This document shows, piece by piece, positions 15,301 through 47,960 of a stretch of 64,000 nt of DNA. The stretch comes from Lama guanicoe (Eukaryota), in the NCBI GenBank assembly GCA_013239625.1, contig MU053561.1, forward strand, positions 4,155,992 to 4,219,991, written 5' to 3'. The notes under the pieces are model-generated. The model saw only the letters and a program-made list of their open reading frames with translations, was not told the origin of the DNA and made no database searches. The translations under genes were made by a program, and so were the position numbers. Within the stretch, counting starts at the first letter, position 1; each line of letters opens with the position of its first letter.

Positions 15301-17900
15301 CTCCAGGTCTCTAGGAAGTCAGTTAGGCTAGTAACAGCTTTTGTTTGCATGTACCCGAGACTGACCAATGCTTCCTCTGGTCATGGGGGCTTCTTGGCAG
15401 TGTCCAGGGACCCAGGGAAGCCACACAGGCTGGCATCGGGGCAAACACAGCACCTGAAGGTTGGTTCTGGATCTGCAGCAGCCCTGGGCCCTCAACAGCA
15501 GAGTCTGTACATCTTCCATTAACTTTATGCGATTTGACTTCCTTCTGGGACCTCTTCTCGTTTCTCACTGCTGAGTGGGTGGCACTCTGATTCCCCAAAC
15601 TCTCCATAGCTTTTCCTCACCTCACAGCGCCTGCTCAGCAGAGCACATGCTCCTCTCCAGGGCTGGTTCACAGGTGTCCCCCCACCGGCTGCACTCCCCT
15701 CCCGTGCCGTGAGCTTCAGCTCCCATGGTGATCTCACTCTGTGTTTTCTGGTTCAGAACAGTTAGAGAGCAATCTCACTTGGCCTAGCTCAACGTTTCAA
15801 ACAACCAAGTCACTGGGTGGGCCCATGGGTTAGTTGCACTTAGGGCAGATGCCCTGATGGATCAGGGGCCGGCCTGGTGCACAACTGAAAGCTTTGTGTC
15901 TGTTCATACTCACCAGCCTTTCCCTCCACAGGTGGCCCGAGGCCAGGTCCTCTGTACTTCACACCTGGGACTCCACTGTAGCTTCTCAGCTGAATCCCTA
16001 CTTCCCACACTGAGCCAGGATTTGAGCCTGGATTTGCCAGGTATATTGTTCTTTAGATTATTCTCTGATGCTTCCATGTGAATATTTCCATGGTCCAGTT
16101 GACTCATCAACAGACTGCAAAACCCTCAAGGCCAGGGAGGATCTCACCTTTCCCCTGTGTGACAGGGCACTGAGTGGAACATGCCAGGCGGGCCAGAGGC
16201 ATGAATGAACGAACACATTCATTAATTTAGGGAGAAAAGAAGACTGACTGGTTGAGTATCACTGTCTAAAGCAGTTAGCCTGCAGATCCCTGGACAAATG
16301 GCCACGTCCCTCTGCACTGTTCTGGCCACGGGGCCCACTGCTCTGCCTCCTCAGGGCCTTTGGGTGCAGGCAACTGAGCCCTCAACTACCCCAGACACCC
16401 AGGCCTGGAGGGTCCAAGGAAAAGGCTTCCTTGTCTTTTAGATTATGCTGCTGAGAGCCCACATGGAATATGAGCCATCTAATTTGGTTACTGGGATTTA
16501 AGCCAAGTCCAGGAAAAGGAGAGTCAGGAGCACATTAAGAAAAGAATGTCTAGGGACAGTTTGGAGGGAGGCGAGGAGAGGGCCATCCTGAGAGTCTTCA
16601 GCACTCAGTCCACAGCTGGGCCTGTGTTCTGGGCCTGGTCCTGTTACTACCCGAGCTGTGTGTCCCCAGACAGTCTCTCATCAGTTCTGGCCATTCACCT
16701 TCCTACCTCCCAGGGTTACCGTGAAAGTCAAATGCAATCATAAATGCAAGACAGGTGTCATTAGCATCATCATCATCATCACGAGGCAGGTAACTATGCC
16801 CGGTGTGGCTTGGAGTCCCGTGGGGCTCTGCCGTCTATAACAGACACACTCACCCAGACAAACACGTCGGAAACACAGACAGTGGGGAGAAATCAAAACA
16901 AGATGCAAACACTCATGTGTGTATATATCATGTATCAAATGAAGCAAAGTAGTTGTTTATTTTAAAATACAGGATTGTTTATAGTGTGGAGCCCGAGCCG
17001 TAAGCACACAATTGACTTGAAATGAAGAGGACGGAATGACAGTAAGCCACCATCCGAGTTCCAGGTACTCTCCGTACATTGTTTCATTTCTTCTTCACAG
17101 CAGCCTTGATACTATTATCTTCTTTTTTCGCAGAGAATTAAATCAAGTGTGTATGAGACTTGGGACTTGAACTCCAAAGCTGATCCTTGTCCACTCCAAC
17201 TGGCTTCCCCCAGAACCTCAGGTTAGGAAGCACAGAAGTTGTCCAGGCCAACCACCCTTCAGAGCAGTCATGAAGACCACAGCTGGCTTCTCTGCTGGTG
17301 GGCAGCATAGACCGTGCTTGGACATCTGGGACCATCAGAAAGGTGGCTGTCCTCTAGTGCTGCAGAGGGACCACATTTGCTCCCAGGGAATCTTCCTTGA
17401 CACCCTTGTAGAAAGGGACACACATCTGTACCCAGAGAAACCTGAACAACCTGATTTTCACAATAGTCATCCAAATACCAGACAGTGTGTTCTGTTTTAT
17501 GAATGTCCCTGCATTTTAAAGAACAGAACACCAGGAACATCAATGCTAAAACAAAAGGCACATGGGAAAGGACTAGTGACCCAGAGCTGCAGGACCTAAC
17601 TGTCTCATGAACAGCCAAAGGAAGGCTGGTGGCTTGTGAATCAGTCTCCATGTCAGGGCCTTGGTGGGACAGAGCCACCCACACTCACAAACTGGGCTTC
17701 TAGGCCTTTTCAAAGATCCTAGAGCCCAATCCCCTGCTCATCTCCCCCTGAAATCAGGGGTCCCAGGGTGGGAATGGGAGCCTAGTGGTGAGGAATGGGA
17801 GTCCAAGAGGATGGTGGAAGAGCCAGACAAAGGAGCTAGTAAGGGGCAACTGGTGGCGCTTCAATCCAGGGCGAAGGACTCTCTCAGTCCAGATGTAGCC

Positions 17901-17914
17901 GTGTGTGTGTGTGT

Positions 17915-17948
<34 letters not shown>
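17901..17948. repeat. (GT)n microsatellite
   Basis: About 24 GT units with one CT interruption. Confidence 0.97.
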
Positions 17949-18747
17949 TCCTGCTGTTTATAATCAGCAAATCCATTTTTGTGGAGCTGGCTTATTTTTG
18001 CTCAATGGACCAATACCTTGAGCTTTTCAAACATGTAGAAAACAATAACAGTTTTAATAATGGGTGACTTCACCCCAGCTTCCCCTGAGAAGATGTTTGG
18101 AACCCACAGAAGACGGGAAGATAGGAAACAAGTGGGGGCCCATTCAGGACCAAGCTGCAGGATAGCCGTCTTCTCCAAGAACCTGGCAGGCCCACTCAGG
18201 CCCCCAGCCTGCTCCTCTCCAGTGACCCAGGCAGAGGAACTTTCCATCAAGGCAGGGCCTGACTCAACCTCTCCCAGGCAAACCAGACACCAGCCACCAA
18301 ACTGCCAGCACAAGAGTTTCCATAATGAGACGCTTCCAGGAAAGCCCCATAAAACCTTTACTGTAAATTCAATAAACTGGATTTCAAACATGGTGGCTGG
18401 GCTGGGGAAGACTGGAGCCACACTGCTACCCTCCACCCTCTCTGCCATCTGCGCACCCACAGAAGCAGGCATTCCAGCCCAGACAGAAACGCAGCCCCAC
18501 CCTCATCCTCATGCCAGTCCTCCCATTCCCAAGTAGCTTCTACATGCTCTCCCCATACCACCAGCGTCCTGGACCAGCTTGAGTCTTGTCAACAGAACCT
18601 CCAGACATGAGCCTAGCCACTCACGGGGTGTGAAAAACAAGTCCTCCAAGGCTCTTGAGCATCCCAGGGGCTTCAAGGAACTCAGCTCCTTGACATTTGT
18701 TGGAGCCTCTCACCTGCTTTTTTGTGCCCCATACCATCAGGACATCA

Positions 18748-19505
18748 TGGACATCAGGCGTTCCCTCCATGCAGGTTTAGAGGAAACACCTTCATGGGTA
18801 AAATCCCCAGAGGGCAGCGCTGTGATTGCCAAGTAGCAGGGATAGGAGGGGCATCTTAGGTAGAGCTGGGCCCCTGGGACAGCAGGGCTTCAATGTCAGG
18901 CTCAATGTCGATGGTCAGAAAGCGGCGGCTGTACCTGCGCACAGGCACACCATCTGGGCCCACCAGGAACTTCTCGAAGTTCCAGGAGACATCCTTGCGG
19001 CATACTGGAGACCAGGTGATGAACTTGGGGTCGGTCATGAGGACAGTGGCGTCGTCACTGGGAGTGGGCAGGGCCTCACGAAGAAAGGCGAAGAGCGGGT
19101 GCGCCTTTGAGCCGTTCACGTCACATTTCTCAAAGAGCATGAAGTTGGGCTCGAACCCGCCTCCTGGTCGGACATACTTGAGGCAGTTCAGGATCTCCTC
19201 GTTCTTCGCGTTCTCCTGATACCCAAACTGGTTGCACGGGAAGCCCAGCACGACCAGGCCCCGGGGCCCGAGGCGCCGCTGCAGCTCATTCAGCTGGGTG
19301 TAGTCCCGGACCGTCGTGCCTCAGAGCGACGCCACATTCTCAATGAGCAGCACCTTGCCCAGCAGGGAGCCCAGGCTCACCGGCGGGGCGCGCAGAGAAG
19401 GCGTATACCGTGCGCGGGGCCGCCGCCGCTAGCGCAGCCGCGGAACGCTGAGCCGCGCACATGGCGTGGGTTTGGAGAAATAAAGGAGAGCCAAGGACTA
19501 GAAAA
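18748..19505 (-). pseudogene. GPX1: Processed glutathione peroxidase 1 pseudogene (5'UTR, CDS, partial 3'UTR)
   Basis: ATG at 19462-19460 (MCAAQRSAAALAAAAPRTVYAFSARP). Sec TGA at 19323-19321 in [15 protein letters not shown], in frame with ...[19 protein letters not shown]...[12 protein letters not shown]...; TAA at 18858-18856. No intron at the Q|E exon junction. ATG-to-Sec distance is 139 nt versus 153 expected (Sec52 in artiodactyl GPX1), i.e. a 14-nt deletion near 19385 that shifts the frame. Confidence 0.96.
18752..18800 (-). promoter_or_regulatory. SECIS element core carried by the GPX1 retrocopy
   Basis: Minus strand: ATGA(18795-18792)-aggtgtttcctct-AAA(18778-18776)-cctgcatggagggaacgcc-TGAT(18756-18753), the canonical GPX1 SECIS layout. 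Confidence 0.9.
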
Positions 19506-20147
19506 GCCGAATGGCTGCAGGAGCTCAAAGAGAAAGGCCCTGAGCTGCTGAAACCGCCGCCAGCGAACCCAGAGCCCTTGGACCTGGCCTCCAAGCTCAG
19601 GGAGGCGGAGGAGACGCAGAACAGCCTGCAGGCCGAGTGTGACCAGTACCGCACCATCCTGGCCGAGACGGAGGGCATGCTCAAGGACTTGCAGAAGAGC
19701 GTGGAGGAGGAGAAGCAGGTGTGGAAGGCCCGGGTGAGCGCCACGGAGGAGGAGCTCCAGAAGTCACGGGTCACAGTGAAACATCTTGAAGAGATTGTCG
19801 AGAAGCTGAAAGGAGAACTCGAAAGTTCAGATCAGGTGAAGGAGCGCACCTCACACCTAGAGGCCGAGCTGGAGAAGCACATGGCGGCCGCCAGCGCCGA
19901 GTGCCAGAGCTACGCCCAGGAGGTGGCGGGGTTGAGGCAACTTCTACTAGAATCTCAGTCTCAACTGGACGCAGCCAAGAGTGAAGCCCAGAAACAAAGC
20001 AGTAAGCTTGCCCTGGTCAGGCAGCAGTTGAGTGAGATGAAGAGCCACGTAGAGGATGGTGATGTAGCCGGGTGGCACCAGCCATCTAAGACCATGAAAA
20101 GGAAATACACCACCCTAACATTCAATCTAGATCCAGAAGACATCTGA
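19461..20147 (+). other. Chimeric 228-codon ORF (antisense GPX1 5'UTR + RRBP1 fragment + flanking DNA); expression unknown
   Basis: ATG at 19461, 15 codons from the reversed GPX1 leader, 189 RRBP1 codons, 24 flank codons, TGA at 20145-20147. Confidence 0.3.
19506..20072 (+). pseudogene. RRBP1: Processed internal fragment of ribosome-binding protein 1 (p180) coiled-coil region
   Basis: 189 uninterrupted codons, AEWLQELKEKGP...DLASKLREAEETQ...QAECDQYR...LEKHMAAASAECQ...SEMKSHVEDGDVAG, matching the RRBP1 C-terminal coiled coil. No introns across a region that is multi-exonic in the parent gene; stops before the RRBP1 C-terminus. Confidence 0.93.
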
Positions 20148-23100
20148 CTCAGGGTAATGGAGTCACAGCATTTCCCCTTGTCCTGGTCAAAAACCTCAGC
20201 CCCTCACCCTGATCCTCAGCCAAATGCCTTACACCCCACCCTCAAAACTAAGACACTGGATTTCCTATATACATGACTTTCTCCCACACCTTTCACTCTC
20301 TTACCCAAACTGTAGCCTCACTCTGCCCTCTCAGGGCTGAGCCATGCCAGGGGTCAAAAATGCTTGCAAAGCATCTGGCTTGGGCAACGCAACCTGGGCT
20401 CTGTGTTGAGATGCAGAGACAAAAGCAGGCCTTGGGCTTCCAGGCTCTGTGCTCGGCCCACTTCACCGGGGCAAGGTGGGGATCAGGAAGGTCATGGCAG
20501 AGAGTCTGTCCTGGGAACCATGGCTGAGTGGACTGGGAAGAAGGTGATGGCTTCACTGGCAGGGCCTAGGAAGTTTGTGTTTGATCAGAAAGCAGAGAAA
20601 GCACCTCAAAACATCAGAATGGGAAGGGACTTAGACTCAGACTTTATCCAACTCCTCACTTACGTTGTGCAGATGAAGCAATGGGGGTACCGAGGGGTGA
20701 ACGGACCTGCCCAAGAGCACACATGCTTTCTTTCACACATCAGCAAGCCAACTATAGGCCAGGCACAGTGTTGCTGGAGGTTAGCCTCCCGACTCCCAAG
20801 CACTCACTCCCCAGCACTTCTTGCTTCTGAGATAACAACAGCAGGGACCCACGGAGCACGGAAGGCATAAGGCTGTGAGGCATGCTGTGGTCTAGTGTGA
20901 GGACACTGGATTCACAGAAGACTGAGGTCTACGTGGCCCCAGGTAGAAACCTCCCTGAACCTTGGTCTCTTCTTTTGGACAGTATGTCCAGTAATATCTG
21001 TATCTACACCTCACTTCCTCATTTGCTGTAAGTGTCAAATGAGATCACATATAAAACTGTGAATCACTATACAAGGTAGGAAGTGTGAAAGAGATAAGAG
21101 AGTTAGGTTAGAACTAGGAGGCTTCGCAACCCCAGCATCCCCGAGGAAATAGACACACGAGCACCTGGCTGATACCCCACAGGCCAGGTGTCCTGCCTCG
21201 CCCACTCACTGAACCACTGCTCTGAGGCAGCTTCTTAGGAGTGATTCACATCCCTGGCCCCTTTCTAGATCAGGCAGAAAGTGAAAGGCATACTGTGCAT
21301 TTCTCCTCCTCTGGGTGATAGGGTTTCACATTCCTTCCTGCCTCTTCGCAGCAGGACCACAGAATCTTCTCTGCAAGCCCGTCTAGAAGACTTCCCGCCC
21401 CACTCTGTGCAGACACTTGGGCCGTGGATATTTTCCACATTTTTTAAACTACTTTTTTGGGAAACTATTTTCCTCCAGCCCTGGACCAAAGACAAACCAG
21501 TCAGAGCTTGCAGCTGTGAGTCCAGAGGGCAGCCAGGCATTTGCCTGAAGGCTTGCAGGGCACCAGCACTGCCTGTACTTTTCCATGAATGGAGCAGGGT
21601 CAGCTTCCCAAGGAACACTGCCTGGTGGCCCGGCATCCTGGGGATTTTCCCATTTGGCTTTGGGGAAGTTGCTACAACCTGATTCCTTCCAGCTGTGGCT
21701 GAGGAACTGATGAGTGTAAGGATTCAGATTTCCATCCCTGATTTTTAAACAGAAGGTGGTCCTGATTCCCCTAAACCAGCTTCCTCTCCATGATGGATCT
21801 GAATGGTAATTCTTCCGCCTGGGTTTCTGGCATTTCCCTAACTGCCCTCCAAGTACCTACTCATTATTTGCACGTCTTAAATGCCCCAGGCTTCAGAGCT
21901 GATTGGCCTCACCAATTACCTGTACTCATACCTCAGCCCAGTCCAATCCTAGGGTGAGATGGAGAGTGAACTTCTGCCACCAACAAAACAGAGTGATGAT
22001 AAGTGGATTTGGAGGGGACGTCAGCTATATGGAGAAATGGCTAAACACATGGAATTTGGGCTCTGCCATACTCGAAGTTCAACTGGCTCTGCCACTTTCA
22101 AGTTTCTGTTATTTCCTTGAGTTTTTTTCCTCACCAGTGAAAGAGCTAACATGACTTGTCTCAGAGGACTGGAAGTAGGATTAATTTAAATGATACATAT
22201 TTTAAAAGTACTTATTACTGTGCCTGATACGAATTGATATCTTGTAATGATGAACAAGCGAGGCAGGGTGATGGGACCTACCCATCTTCTCCTGCCAGAA
22301 TTATGATCCAGTGAAAGAAGGGAAGATGAGGACAAGGCAGACACAGGGAACAGCACAGAAGGACAATCTCTCCATTTTATGAGTTGCACAAGATAGCTGG
22401 GTTTTTGTGGCTGAGGCCTGCCAGGGAAGAAGAGGTGCTGGCTCTAGCCTGGCCCTTGGAGAACTCAGAGAAACTGGAATCTTCAGCGAGCTCACATGTG
22501 GTTCAAAAGCAGCCTTCCAATGTGACAAGCTGAACCGCATGCCCCAGATACGACCTATTTTCCTGCTGGGCTGATCCCCCTGCAACACAATGGGCTTCTT
22601 TCCATTCCGCACCCCACTCCTCAGCTTCTGCCACCAGCCCCACCAATATCCGTTTCTTCCTGCAAAACCTTGGAACAAAACTATCACTTGACACTACATT
22701 TTTCTTAAGTTCTGGTTGGCAGAACAGTATGTATAGGATGATCATTCTAGTAATGCTAAAATATAAATATCAATGATTAGAAAACTATATGCCAAGGCAA
22801 CTATATTCCAAGGTTGACAGTGATGATCTAATGTCTGCAAGGGGTGGAATTAGAGGTCATTTTTATTTTCAACTTCATGCTTTTCTGTGTTTTCCAAATG
22901 AACAATTTTAGGTTTTATAAAAAGAAAATAATTTTTTTAAGAAAACTAAGTTTATCACTGGCTTTTTTACATGTCCATTAAATCATGCACTCTCCTTCTT
23001 AAATCTTTTTGATAGCTTCTCATGCACATAGAACAAAATTCAAACTCCTTTTCCATGGCCTACAAGGCTAGACATGACCCAGACCCTCCACATGGCTCCA

Positions 23101-31270: not shown

Positions 31271-31404
31271 TAGAGTTACTGCACTGAACAAGCAAAAACA
31301 TAAGACATCCAGTGAAACTTCATTTTCAGATAAATAAGGAATCTTTTTAGTATAAGCATGTCCCATGCAATATTTGGGACATAATTAAATTTAAAAAGAA
31401 ATCC
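31271..31404. mobile_element. MER53-like palindromic DNA element, left part
   Basis: ttttcagataaataag...ttttagtataagcatgtcccatgcaatatttgggacata, the MER53 central hairpin; the element is interrupted by an L1. Confidence 0.75.
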
Positions 31405-32537
31405 ACAAAAAGACAACTTATGGAATGGGAGACAATTTTTGCAAAAGATAAGACTGACAAGGGCTTAATCTCCAGAATATATAAACAGCTCATACAACTT
31501 ACTAACAAAAAAACAAACAACCTAATCCAAAATTGTGCCAAAGACCTAAACAAGCATTTCTCCAGTGAATACATACAAACAGCCAATAGGCACATGAAAA
31601 AATGCTCAACATCACTAATTATCAGAGAAATGCAAATCAAAACTACAGCGAGGTATCACCTCACACCAGTAATAATGGCCATCATTCAAAAGTATACAAA
31701 TGATAAACGCTGGAGAGGGTGTAGAGAAAAGGGAACCCTCCTACACTGCTGGTGGGAATGTAGCTTGGTGCAGCCATTATGTCAAACATATTAGGGATTC
31801 CTCAAAAACCTAAAAATAGACTTACCAATATGACCCAGCAATCCCTGTCCTGAGCATACACCCAGAAGGAACCTTAATTCAAAAAGATACATGCACCCCA
31901 GTGTTCATAGCAGCACTATTTACAACAGCCAAGACAAGGAAACAACCTAAATGTCCATTAACAGACGACTAGATAAAGAAGCTATGGTATATTTTTACAG
32001 TGGAATACTACTCAGCCATAAAAAAGAAAATGCCATTTGCAGCAACATGGATGGACCTGGAGGCTGTTATTCTAAGTGAAGAAAGCCAAAAAGAGAAAGA
32101 AAAATACCATATGATATCACTCATATGTGGAATCAAAAAAAAAAAAAAAACAAAAAAAAAAACAAAAAAAACAAAAACAAAAACAAAAACCACAAACTTA
32201 TCTTCAAAGCAGAAACAGACTCACAGGCATAGAAAACAAACTTATGGTTACCAGCAGGGAAAGGCGGTGGAAAGGGATAAACTGAGAGTTTGAGATTTGC
32301 AGATACTAACTAATATATATAAAATACACAAGCTTATACTGTATAGCACAGGGAACTACACTCAATATCTTCTAGTAACATAGTGAAAAAGAATATGAAA
32401 ATGAATATATGTATGTTCCTATATGACTGAAGTATTATGCTGTACACCAGAAATTGACACAACATTGTAAAATGACTATACTTCAATAAAAATATTTTTA
32501 AACAAACAAATAAATAAAATGGTGCAGCTATTGTGGG
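31405..32537 (+). mobile_element. 5'-truncated lineage-specific LINE-1 (ORF2 C-terminus, 3'UTR, A tail)
   Basis: ORF2-like peptides [23 protein letters not shown]...[27 protein letters not shown] and EYYSAIKK...FAATWMDLE. AATAAA and A-rich tail; TSD aaaaagaaatcc (31393-31404) / aaaaaaaaatcc (32538-32549) at a TT/AAAA site. Confidence 0.93.
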
Positions 32538-46679: not shown

Positions 46680-47960
46680 GAATCCAGCAGGACCCGGGGA
46701 TCCGCTGGCCAGGAGGAGCAGGGTGAGGATCAGCCTTCTGGGTGTTTGGGAAGCGGCATCTCTCGCCTTCTCCCAGTTCTTGCCTATTAAGGTAACAGTT
46801 CTCAGAGGAGCGCGGGAGGGGCAGAGGGAGGGTCCCCTAGAAGCGGCTTCCGCGGCCTATACGCTCACAGGTCGCTGGGGAACCACAGCGCATTCCGGGA
46901 CCAGGTGCCCCCAGCCGGGTGCCCTGCAACGGGTACTGCCAGCTTCAGGGCGGCCTTGAGTCCTACTTATCTCTTCTACTGGAGGCCACCTTCTGAGGTT
47001 TCCATAGTCACCGGGGGCGCATCCTTATTTCAATCATCACCGCAGGCCTCAAATGAGTCTCTGCACAGAGAGCTGATAAAATGGGTCTCGGGTCCCCAGT
47101 GGACGCTCCTTCCTCGCAGATGCTCCGATAACCACCACGAGGGGGGCGTCTACAGGGCGCGTCGCCCTGCCTGGAGAGGGAAGGAGGCGGTCCCCGTTCC
47201 GGGGGGAGAGCACGGGTACGTGCTCCCTCTGGCCGCTCGACCCCCACCCCGCAGCTCCCCAACCCCTGGCCGGCTTTTAGGCACCGGGTCCTCGCTGGCC
47301 CGCTCTCACCGGGTGCAGGCTCCCGCCCCACCCGCCCCCAGCAGGCCCCGCCCACGGCCCCTCGCGCTCCGCCCCCTCCCCGCCGGCTCTCTCAGCTCCG
47401 GGCGCTCGGAGCCCGGGCCCGGGGACTCGGAATCCCGCCGCCGCGGCCGCAGCATGGGGCGCTTCCGCGGGGGCCTGCGGTGCATCAAGTACCTGCTGCT
47501 CGGCTTCAACCTGCTCTTCTGGGTGAGACCCGGAACCGAAAGGGCGGGCAGCGGAGGGGGCCGGGCGGGGGCGCAGGGCCGGGGTCCTCGGGGAGCCGAC
47601 CGCTGCGGTGTCGGAGCCGGGCTCCAGAAGGCAGGGAGTTCAAAAAGGCGGAGGTGAGAAAAAGGCAGACAAAGGGCGGGGAGGGGGTGGGATACAGGGG
47701 GAGAGGACGGACTGAGAGAGCAACGAGAAATGGTGAGAAGGGGGAGACCCTGTGCGGCTCTTCCCGCCGAGAAACCTCTCTGCCTCGGTTTTCATCTCCC
47801 TGCTGGTGACTCCAGGTGCAGGGACACCAGCTTCTCGTCACCTCTGGCCCCCCCATGCACACACCCCCTACTCGCGCCGCCTTTCCCCTGGAACCGGGGC
47901 CTGGCCAGGGCACCGGGACTGCCAGAAGTGGTGCCCCATCCCGAGTGTGGAGACAGCACC
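46680..47960 (+). promoter_or_regulatory. TSPAN2 CpG-island promoter with Sp/KLF GC boxes
   Basis: High GC and CpG density around exon 1; clustered CCCGCCC/CCGCCCC motifs at ~47320-47385; no obvious TATA box. Confidence 0.9.
47454..47522 (+). CDS. TSPAN2: Tetraspanin-2, coding exon 1
   Basis: agcATGG Kozak context; MGRFRGGLRCIKYLLLGFNLLFW (69 nt); GTGAGA donor at 47523, phase 0. Confidence 0.96.

Follow-up and report, generated by a model that had tools for sequence, protein, structure and literature searches.

The stretch of DNA analysed here (the window) comprises 64,000 nucleotides of Lama guanicoe contig MU053561.1, positions 4,155,992 to 4,219,991 in assembly GCA_013239625.1. It carries a 1.34-kb insert composed of two intron-free complementary DNAs (cDNAs). 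A copy of the GPX1 mRNA lies on the minus strand (18748..19507) and directly adjoins a fragment of the RRBP1 mRNA on the plus strand (19507..20073), with the 5′ ends of both facing inward and the 3′ ends facing outward. This arrangement follows from alignment to the parent genes, both of which are intact and which reside on different contigs (GPX1 on C4216, RRBP1 on C754). Parents and additional copies were sought in the same 2.05-Gb mammalian assembly to which the window belongs. The insert itself is known from the sequence of this assembly, and the evidence consists of its comparison with the parent genes found there. No second locus with the same GPX1/RRBP1 arrangement was detected in this genome. 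The insert is embedded in continuous unique sequence without any N, and the insertion site is apparently intergenic, unique DNA.

An initial annotation of the window had described the locus as two spliced cDNAs of unrelated genes arranged head to head. The parent alignments bear this out, as introns have been removed in both halves. The borders, on the other hand, had to be revised. The junction between the two cDNAs, previously placed at 19505/19506, is at 19507/19508 with a 1-nt overlap. Homology to the GPX1 parent starts at 18748, or at 18745 if a single mismatch is tolerated, instead of 18735, and the RRBP1 piece ends at 20073 and not at 20090. The unique left flank is separated from the GPX1 copy by 13 nt, CATCAGGACATCA (18735..18747, plus strand), which appear to represent a junction filler.

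The GPX1 half of the insert

The minus-strand half (18748-19507) matches two exons of a single gene and lacks the 279-bp intron that separates them. Its reading frame was recognized by the Pfam model GSHPx (E=3.7e-29), and the closest solved structures were those of GPX1, 1gp1 and 2f8a ('Glutathione peroxidase 1'), with GPX2 behind them. The copy includes the mRNA 5′ end, the 5′ untranslated region (UTR), exon 1, exon 2 and the 3′UTR through the selenocysteine insertion sequence (SECIS). In the alignment with the parent, the ATG is at 19462-19460, the selenocysteine TGA at 19323-19321, the exon junction at 19215-19217 and the stop codon at 18858-18856, all on the minus strand.

How complete is this copy? 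At the 5′ end, the parent has TTAAAAGG, a TATA-like box, followed by 20 bases and then by GCTTTTCTAG. The window copy begins at GCTTTTCTAG, so that its 5′ end lies 28-29 nt downstream of the TATA-like box. Moreover, an older independent retrocopy (L002, 88% identical) has the same 5′ start base. The shared start, together with the promoter context of the parent, therefore indicates that the GPX1 copy reaches the 5′ end of the mRNA. The 3′ end is different. The copy ends at about position 774 of the mRNA and lacks the 94 nt, AATAAA included, by which the parent continues to the poly(A) site. The Rfam model SECIS_1 matched 18744..18804 (minus strand) over its full length (1-64) with 32 bits, which is under the gathering score of 35, and E=0.0016. 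The position of this match shows that the copy extends to the 3′ edge of the SECIS element and no farther. The earlier description of GPX1 as stopping just past its SECIS, with neither AATAAA nor an A tail, was therefore correct. A weak match to another Rfam model, MIAT_exon5_2, was also seen at 18805-18875 (minus strand), in the 3′ coding/UTR region; at 20 bits versus a gathering score of 75 (E=0.31) we took it to be a chance similarity.

The 567 nt of exon 2 and 3′UTR are identical to the parent, and all changes are found in exon 1. These are four substitutions and one complex 14-nt deletion (19385..19386, minus strand) with an adjacent mismatch. The deletion shifts the reading frame upstream of the selenocysteine codon, and the frame that starts at the ATG stops after 40 codons. 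The GPX1 half is a pseudogene.

The genome contains at least five older GPX1 processed pseudogenes on other contigs (L002, L004, L005, L007 and L008), sharing 71-88% identity with the spliced mRNA of the parent. In four of these (L002, L004, L005 and L007), the copy extends to position 865-870, at the poly(A) site, with an A-rich tract behind it, whereas L008 lacks such an end. The tail-less GPX1 copy of the window is an exception within its own retrocopy family.

The RRBP1 half of the insert

The plus-strand half (19507-20073) matches seven consecutive exons of the parent on contig C754, and six introns have been removed at GT-AG borders. The exon pieces, as delineated by the parent alignment, correspond to 19507-19581, 19582-19671, 19672-19763, 19764-19835, 19836-19931, 19932-20015 and 20016-20073. 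The best named protein match was the pig 'Ribosome binding protein 1', to which the RRBP1 part is 93% identical. The first 7 nt of the exon in which the piece begins, AATTATT, are absent, and its other end lies within an exon that the parent continues. Comparison with the pig fragment indicates that at least 137 RRBP1 codons and the 3′UTR are missing on the 3′ side, in agreement with the earlier observation that RRBP1 stops in the middle of its coding sequence.

An open frame of 228 codons (19461-20147, plus strand) traverses the entire RRBP1 piece in the RRBP1 frame and continues into 74 nt of the flank. Its ATG overlaps the GPX1 ATG in antisense (CATG). No annotated protein was found to cover the chimeric ends of this frame; all 15 matches in other genomes are restricted to the RRBP1 part and span at most 83% of the query. 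An open frame through the RRBP1 half is expected by chance at 0.9% divergence, and no function is implied.

Junctions and flanking sequences

At the inner junction, GPX1 sequence ending in GAAAAGC meets RRBP1 sequence beginning with CCGAATGG, and a single C (19507) can be assigned to either cDNA. At the left border, the filler reiterates the adjoining GPX1 motif (GGACATCA / CATCAGG). Eight consecutive nucleotides of it are identical to adjoining GPX1 sequence, a match length rarely obtained with either shuffled filler (p=0.006) or random 13-mers from the window (p=0.009). The GPX1 parent reads ...GGGGATTTTCC at this position, and the 24-nt string containing the filler is unique in the genome. 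We take the 13 bases to be a templated filler, probably made during synthesis of the junction, but part of them could be target DNA that gave microhomology. Such templated filler suggests that the left border was formed by polymerisation and not by blunt ligation.

At the right junction, comparison of the flank with the continuation of the RRBP1 parent revealed neither similarity nor microhomology (p=0.79).

The initial annotation had also reported the lack of a target-site duplication (TSD). The longest word common to the 73-nt flanks is 6 nt, it is not located at both junctions, and 58% of shuffled flanks do equally well (p=0.58). The absence of a TSD is therefore supported at the level at which it was assessed, that of the present flanks alone.

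We also asked what might have served as primer. The presumed priming ends, ...CCATACCATCA on the top strand and ...GGCTGGTGCC on the bottom strand, are not T-rich. A run of six T's is present at 18718-18723, but it is not adjacent to the GPX1 sequence. The 24 nt that separate it from the GPX1 homology are found nowhere else in the genome; therefore, the T run does not represent the remains of a poly(A) tail, be it from GPX1 or from any third RNA that can be recognised. In addition, the GPX1 parent has a run of four A's just beyond the breakpoint, and there are no corresponding T's at the junction. A search for a third template gave a negative result, as the left flank (17900-18760), the right flank (20060-20900) and the strings of 24 nt and 29 nt next to the junctions are all single-copy in the genome. 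Finally, we considered a GPX1 tail hidden in the left flank. Two weak alignments to the missing 94 nt (12/14 and 9/10 matching positions; shuffle p=0.04 and 0.03) were judged to result from chance or low complexity, and this candidate was rejected.

Divergence and age of the two halves

The GPX1 half differs from its parent by 4 substitutions in 760 nt and by the complex 14-nt deletion. In the RRBP1 half there are 5 substitutions over 567 nt, each of them a transition. The substitution rates of the two halves are not different (Fisher p=0.51), which fits a single event and a single age. Clearly different ages, which the initial annotation had suggested looking for, were thus not found. Taken together, the 9 substitutions in 1327 nt correspond to 0.68% divergence, which, at a generic neutral rate for mammals, would make the insert no more than a few million years old. 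However, some of the changes may have been introduced during synthesis. All 10 differences from the parents are located within 19315-20004, and 7 of them are within about 206 nt of the inner junction, a pattern recognized post hoc. An APOBEC-type signature was considered as well and rejected: three of the five RRBP1 changes are G-to-A in the sense strand, but those in GPX1 do not match such a signature, and there are too few changes to go by.

Origin of the insert

The exact removal of one GPX1 intron and six RRBP1 introns indicates an RNA origin of both halves. A canonical LINE-1 (long interspersed element 1) retrocopy produced by target-primed reverse transcription is ruled out as a description of the insert, since there is no poly(A) tail at the poly(A) site and no TSD. 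A co-oriented template-switch chimera is ruled out by the opposite orientation of the halves (GPX1 minus, RRBP1 plus). Classical twin priming is rejected too, because the segments come from two genes and not from one RNA, although the joining of cDNAs with 3′ ends outward and little homology does match.

The reading that we favor is a one-step patch of a DNA break with reverse-transcribed RNA, made independently of the LINE-1 endonuclease, and we assign it a probability of roughly 0.8. As a scenario, a germ-line or early-embryo cell would have suffered a double-strand break in unique DNA and mended it in a single event without the LINE-1 endonuclease. The 3′ end on the left side of the break would have paired over a few bases with GPX1 mRNA, immediately downstream of its SECIS, and slippage, once or twice, on the CATCAGG motif would have given rise to the 13-nt filler. 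A reverse transcriptase would then have extended this end up to the capped 5′ end of the GPX1 mRNA. On the other strand, the 3′ end on the right side may have been extended on RRBP1 mRNA from within an exon, over 567 nt. The two cDNA 3′ ends would have been joined by end joining or by a template jump with the 1-nt overlap, and the second strands filled in. The enzyme may have been LINE-1 ORF2p acting in trans, the usual suspect, or a cellular polymerase endowed with reverse-transcriptase activity. Polymerase theta has such activity.

The one-step patch fits all the testable features of the insert. The more specific version, in which both ends of the break prime synthesis, is for us an even call. 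It predicts the topology with 3′ ends outward, and the strand orientations, said in the initial annotation to be those expected from such a model, were confirmed by the alignments. Moreover, the GPX1 cDNA extends to the cap and its end is untrimmed at the inner junction, which is consistent with run-off of the polymerase before joining. Thus, of the earlier proposal of two-template priming or RNA patching, the patch has stood up to the analysis, while two-ended priming is plausible and favored. In its most complete form, in which both ends of one spontaneous germ-line break were primed on two unrelated mRNAs with neither a LINE-1 nick nor poly(A), possibly by a cellular polymerase, we consider the scenario tentative and rate it slightly below even odds.

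Several observations weigh against this interpretation. The orientation by itself would arise in one case out of four if fragments were captured at random. Priming by annealing is not visible at the right junction (p=0.79). The T run lies only 11 nt to the left of the filler and, as a possible LINE-1 nick site, is not fully dismissed. The differences from the parents are unevenly spread: GPX1 exon 2 and 3′UTR are free of them over 567 nt (Fisher p=0.02 for the exon 2 part versus exon 1), which could be due to chance, to CpG density or to error-prone synthesis close to the inner junction. Finally, a target deletion, true microhomology and even the break itself are what we infer.

The most serious competitor is the sequential capture, by end joining, of two ready-made truncated cDNAs at a break, with their orientation set by chance. 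There is a precedent: at Cas9-induced breaks in mouse zygotes, spliced mRNA pieces without poly(A), including partial Pcnt and Inadl cDNAs, were inserted in either orientation, and multi-fragment patches were joined with 1-5 bp of microhomology (PMC4516963). The blunt-looking right junction and the 1-nt inner overlap of the GPX1/RRBP1 insert would fit such a process. However, just one of the four possible orientations places both 3′ ends outward, and capture does not readily account for a cap-complete GPX1 end left untrimmed at the inner junction when the other end is truncated. The templated filler at the left border likewise suggests synthesis from the break end, although polymerase-theta-type joining to a cDNA could also yield filler. 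On balance, we regard capture as unlikely, yet clearly ahead of the other alternatives.

Could the LINE-1 endonuclease have initiated the event instead, through twin priming on two RNAs or internal priming, with tails that were never made or were lost? The topology would be the same, antisense RNA/LINE-1 chimeras have been attributed to this process in a recent catalogue (PMC13174262), and the T run at 18718-18723 might mark a nick. Such an origin is nevertheless improbable. Neither outer end has an A tail, there is no TSD, and no T-rich primer end is found beside the cDNAs. The 24 nt that lie between the T run and the start of GPX1 homology have no other match in the genome, and the A run of the parent past the GPX1 breakpoint has left no T's at the junction.

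We next considered an assembly error or cDNA contamination, as the insert is known from the assembly alone. The copy differs from its parents in the same assembly by 9 substitutions and the 14-nt deletion, and it resides in continuous unique sequence with no N. Furthermore, words sampled from a 6.6-kb stretch around the insert occur at shares of 0.78-0.95 in 20 of the 24 listed sequencing runs, which come from 4 organisms and 7 studies. Since 510 of the 6571 words of this stretch are insert-specific, corresponding to about 54 of the 695 sampled, shares of 0.92 or less fit either presence or absence of the insert. The best run, X1 (0.95), misses 35 of the 695 words compared to about 54 that are insert-specific, and therefore must contain some insert words; it is the only run for which this is the case, and possibly derives from the source sample. 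An artefact thus seems very improbable. As a side observation, the runs of one organism split into two groups of two studies each (0.87-0.91 and 0.78-0.79). Absence of the insert in the lower group, as in a presence/absence polymorphism, would produce a gap of about this size, but data quality could equally account for it, and we do not treat it as evidence.

Least probable of all, and in our view barely credible, are two independent retro-insertions later trimmed by deletions: GPX1 mRNA is indeed a frequent source of retrocopies, as its five or more older copies attest, but the second insertion would have had to hit exactly the 5′ border of the first, two tail-removing deletions would have had to follow within about 0.7% divergence, and the halves are equally diverged.

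Surroundings of the insert

A (GT)24 microsatellite is located at 17901-17948, about 0.8 kb to the left of the insert. A 34-nt string from the left flank had no matches in a metagenome scan. Farther away, a GC-rich open frame at 46791-47657 (plus strand) contains MGRFRGGLRCIKYLLLGFNLLFW. This is reminiscent of the N-terminus encoded by a tetraspanin first exon, although Pfam found nothing; if such a gene exists there, its distance downstream of the insert would be about 27 kb. Another open frame, 31351-31794 (plus strand), resembles the C-terminal part of LINE-1 ORF2, again with no Pfam match. At the start of the window, a purine-rich simple repeat (1-560) gives rise to long open frames of the KEGRKEGRK type on both strands.

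Relation to known systems

Mending of breaks with reverse-transcribed RNA is known from experiments, but natural cases involving two different RNAs are rarely seen. RNA patches have been described repeatedly at induced breaks and, in humans, as rare polymorphisms, whereas few natural cases record what became of both ends of a break. Among the papers listed by our literature search, none concerns the GPX1/RRBP1 locus. The locus is young (about 0.7% divergence), its donors are identifiable to the base, one cDNA extends to the cap, and a filler is kept at one border. Through an empty allele in a relative, it could show whether break ends prime synthesis directly on RNA or take up finished cDNAs. 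It also illustrates that scans for retrocopies demanding both poly(A) and a TSD will miss such insertions. If two-ended priming is true, the insert would represent a natural case of two-template twin priming on two mRNAs and a fossil of RNA-templated break repair in trans in a mammal.

The closest counterparts are class 2 templated sequence insertions and repair mediated by reverse-transcriptase products (Onozawa and Aplan; Ono et al. 2015). Common to these and the present insert are a spliced partial cDNA, an intact donor, the lack of poly(A) and TSD, and overlap and filler at the joints. Human class 2 insertion polymorphisms share the same features and include cDNAs of multiple spliced exons (PMC5110952). 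The GPX1/RRBP1 insert differs from this group in being a natural insertion, fixed or segregating, in a non-model mammal and in joining two different cellular mRNAs head to head; moreover, one cDNA is complete to the cap, and the break is presumed, not induced.

Endonuclease-independent LINE-1 insertions are characterized, in Sen et al. 2007 (PMC1920257), by 3′ truncation, absence of a TSD and of poly(A), and a site unlike TTTT/A; target deletion was recorded at 18 of 21 such human loci. The first three features recur in the insert studied here, although its templates are cellular mRNAs and not LINE-1. As to the site, the bases beside the cDNAs are not T-rich, as judged from the present flanks, which have the T run 11 nt from the filler. 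Endonuclease-independent, or non-classical, LINE-1 insertion is reportedly due to Morrish (2002).

Twin priming, said to have been put forward by Ostertag and Kazazian in 2001, is similar in having 3′ ends outward, 5′ ends inward and a join with minimal homology. Its classical form involves one RNA, a LINE-1 nick primed on the poly(A) tail and a TSD, in contrast to the two RNAs, no tail and no TSD observed here. The view taken in the initial annotation, that twin priming inverts part of one RNA only, is outdated. According to a 2026 catalogue, antisense tRNA, 5S rRNA and mRNA segments joined to LINE-1 result from twin priming on a second RNA (PMC13174262). Likewise, two inverted truncated cDNA fragments at one site are read as twin priming in a preprint (10.1101/2024.12.14.628481). 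Chimeric retrogenes of the U6/LINE-1 type, formed by template switching, also combine two RNAs in one insertion, but they are co-oriented and have a poly(A) tail, whereas the present insert is inverted and tail-less. Thus, the phenomenon belongs to a described class, within which the insert stands out by consisting of two cellular mRNAs and by lacking both a LINE-1 part and a tail.

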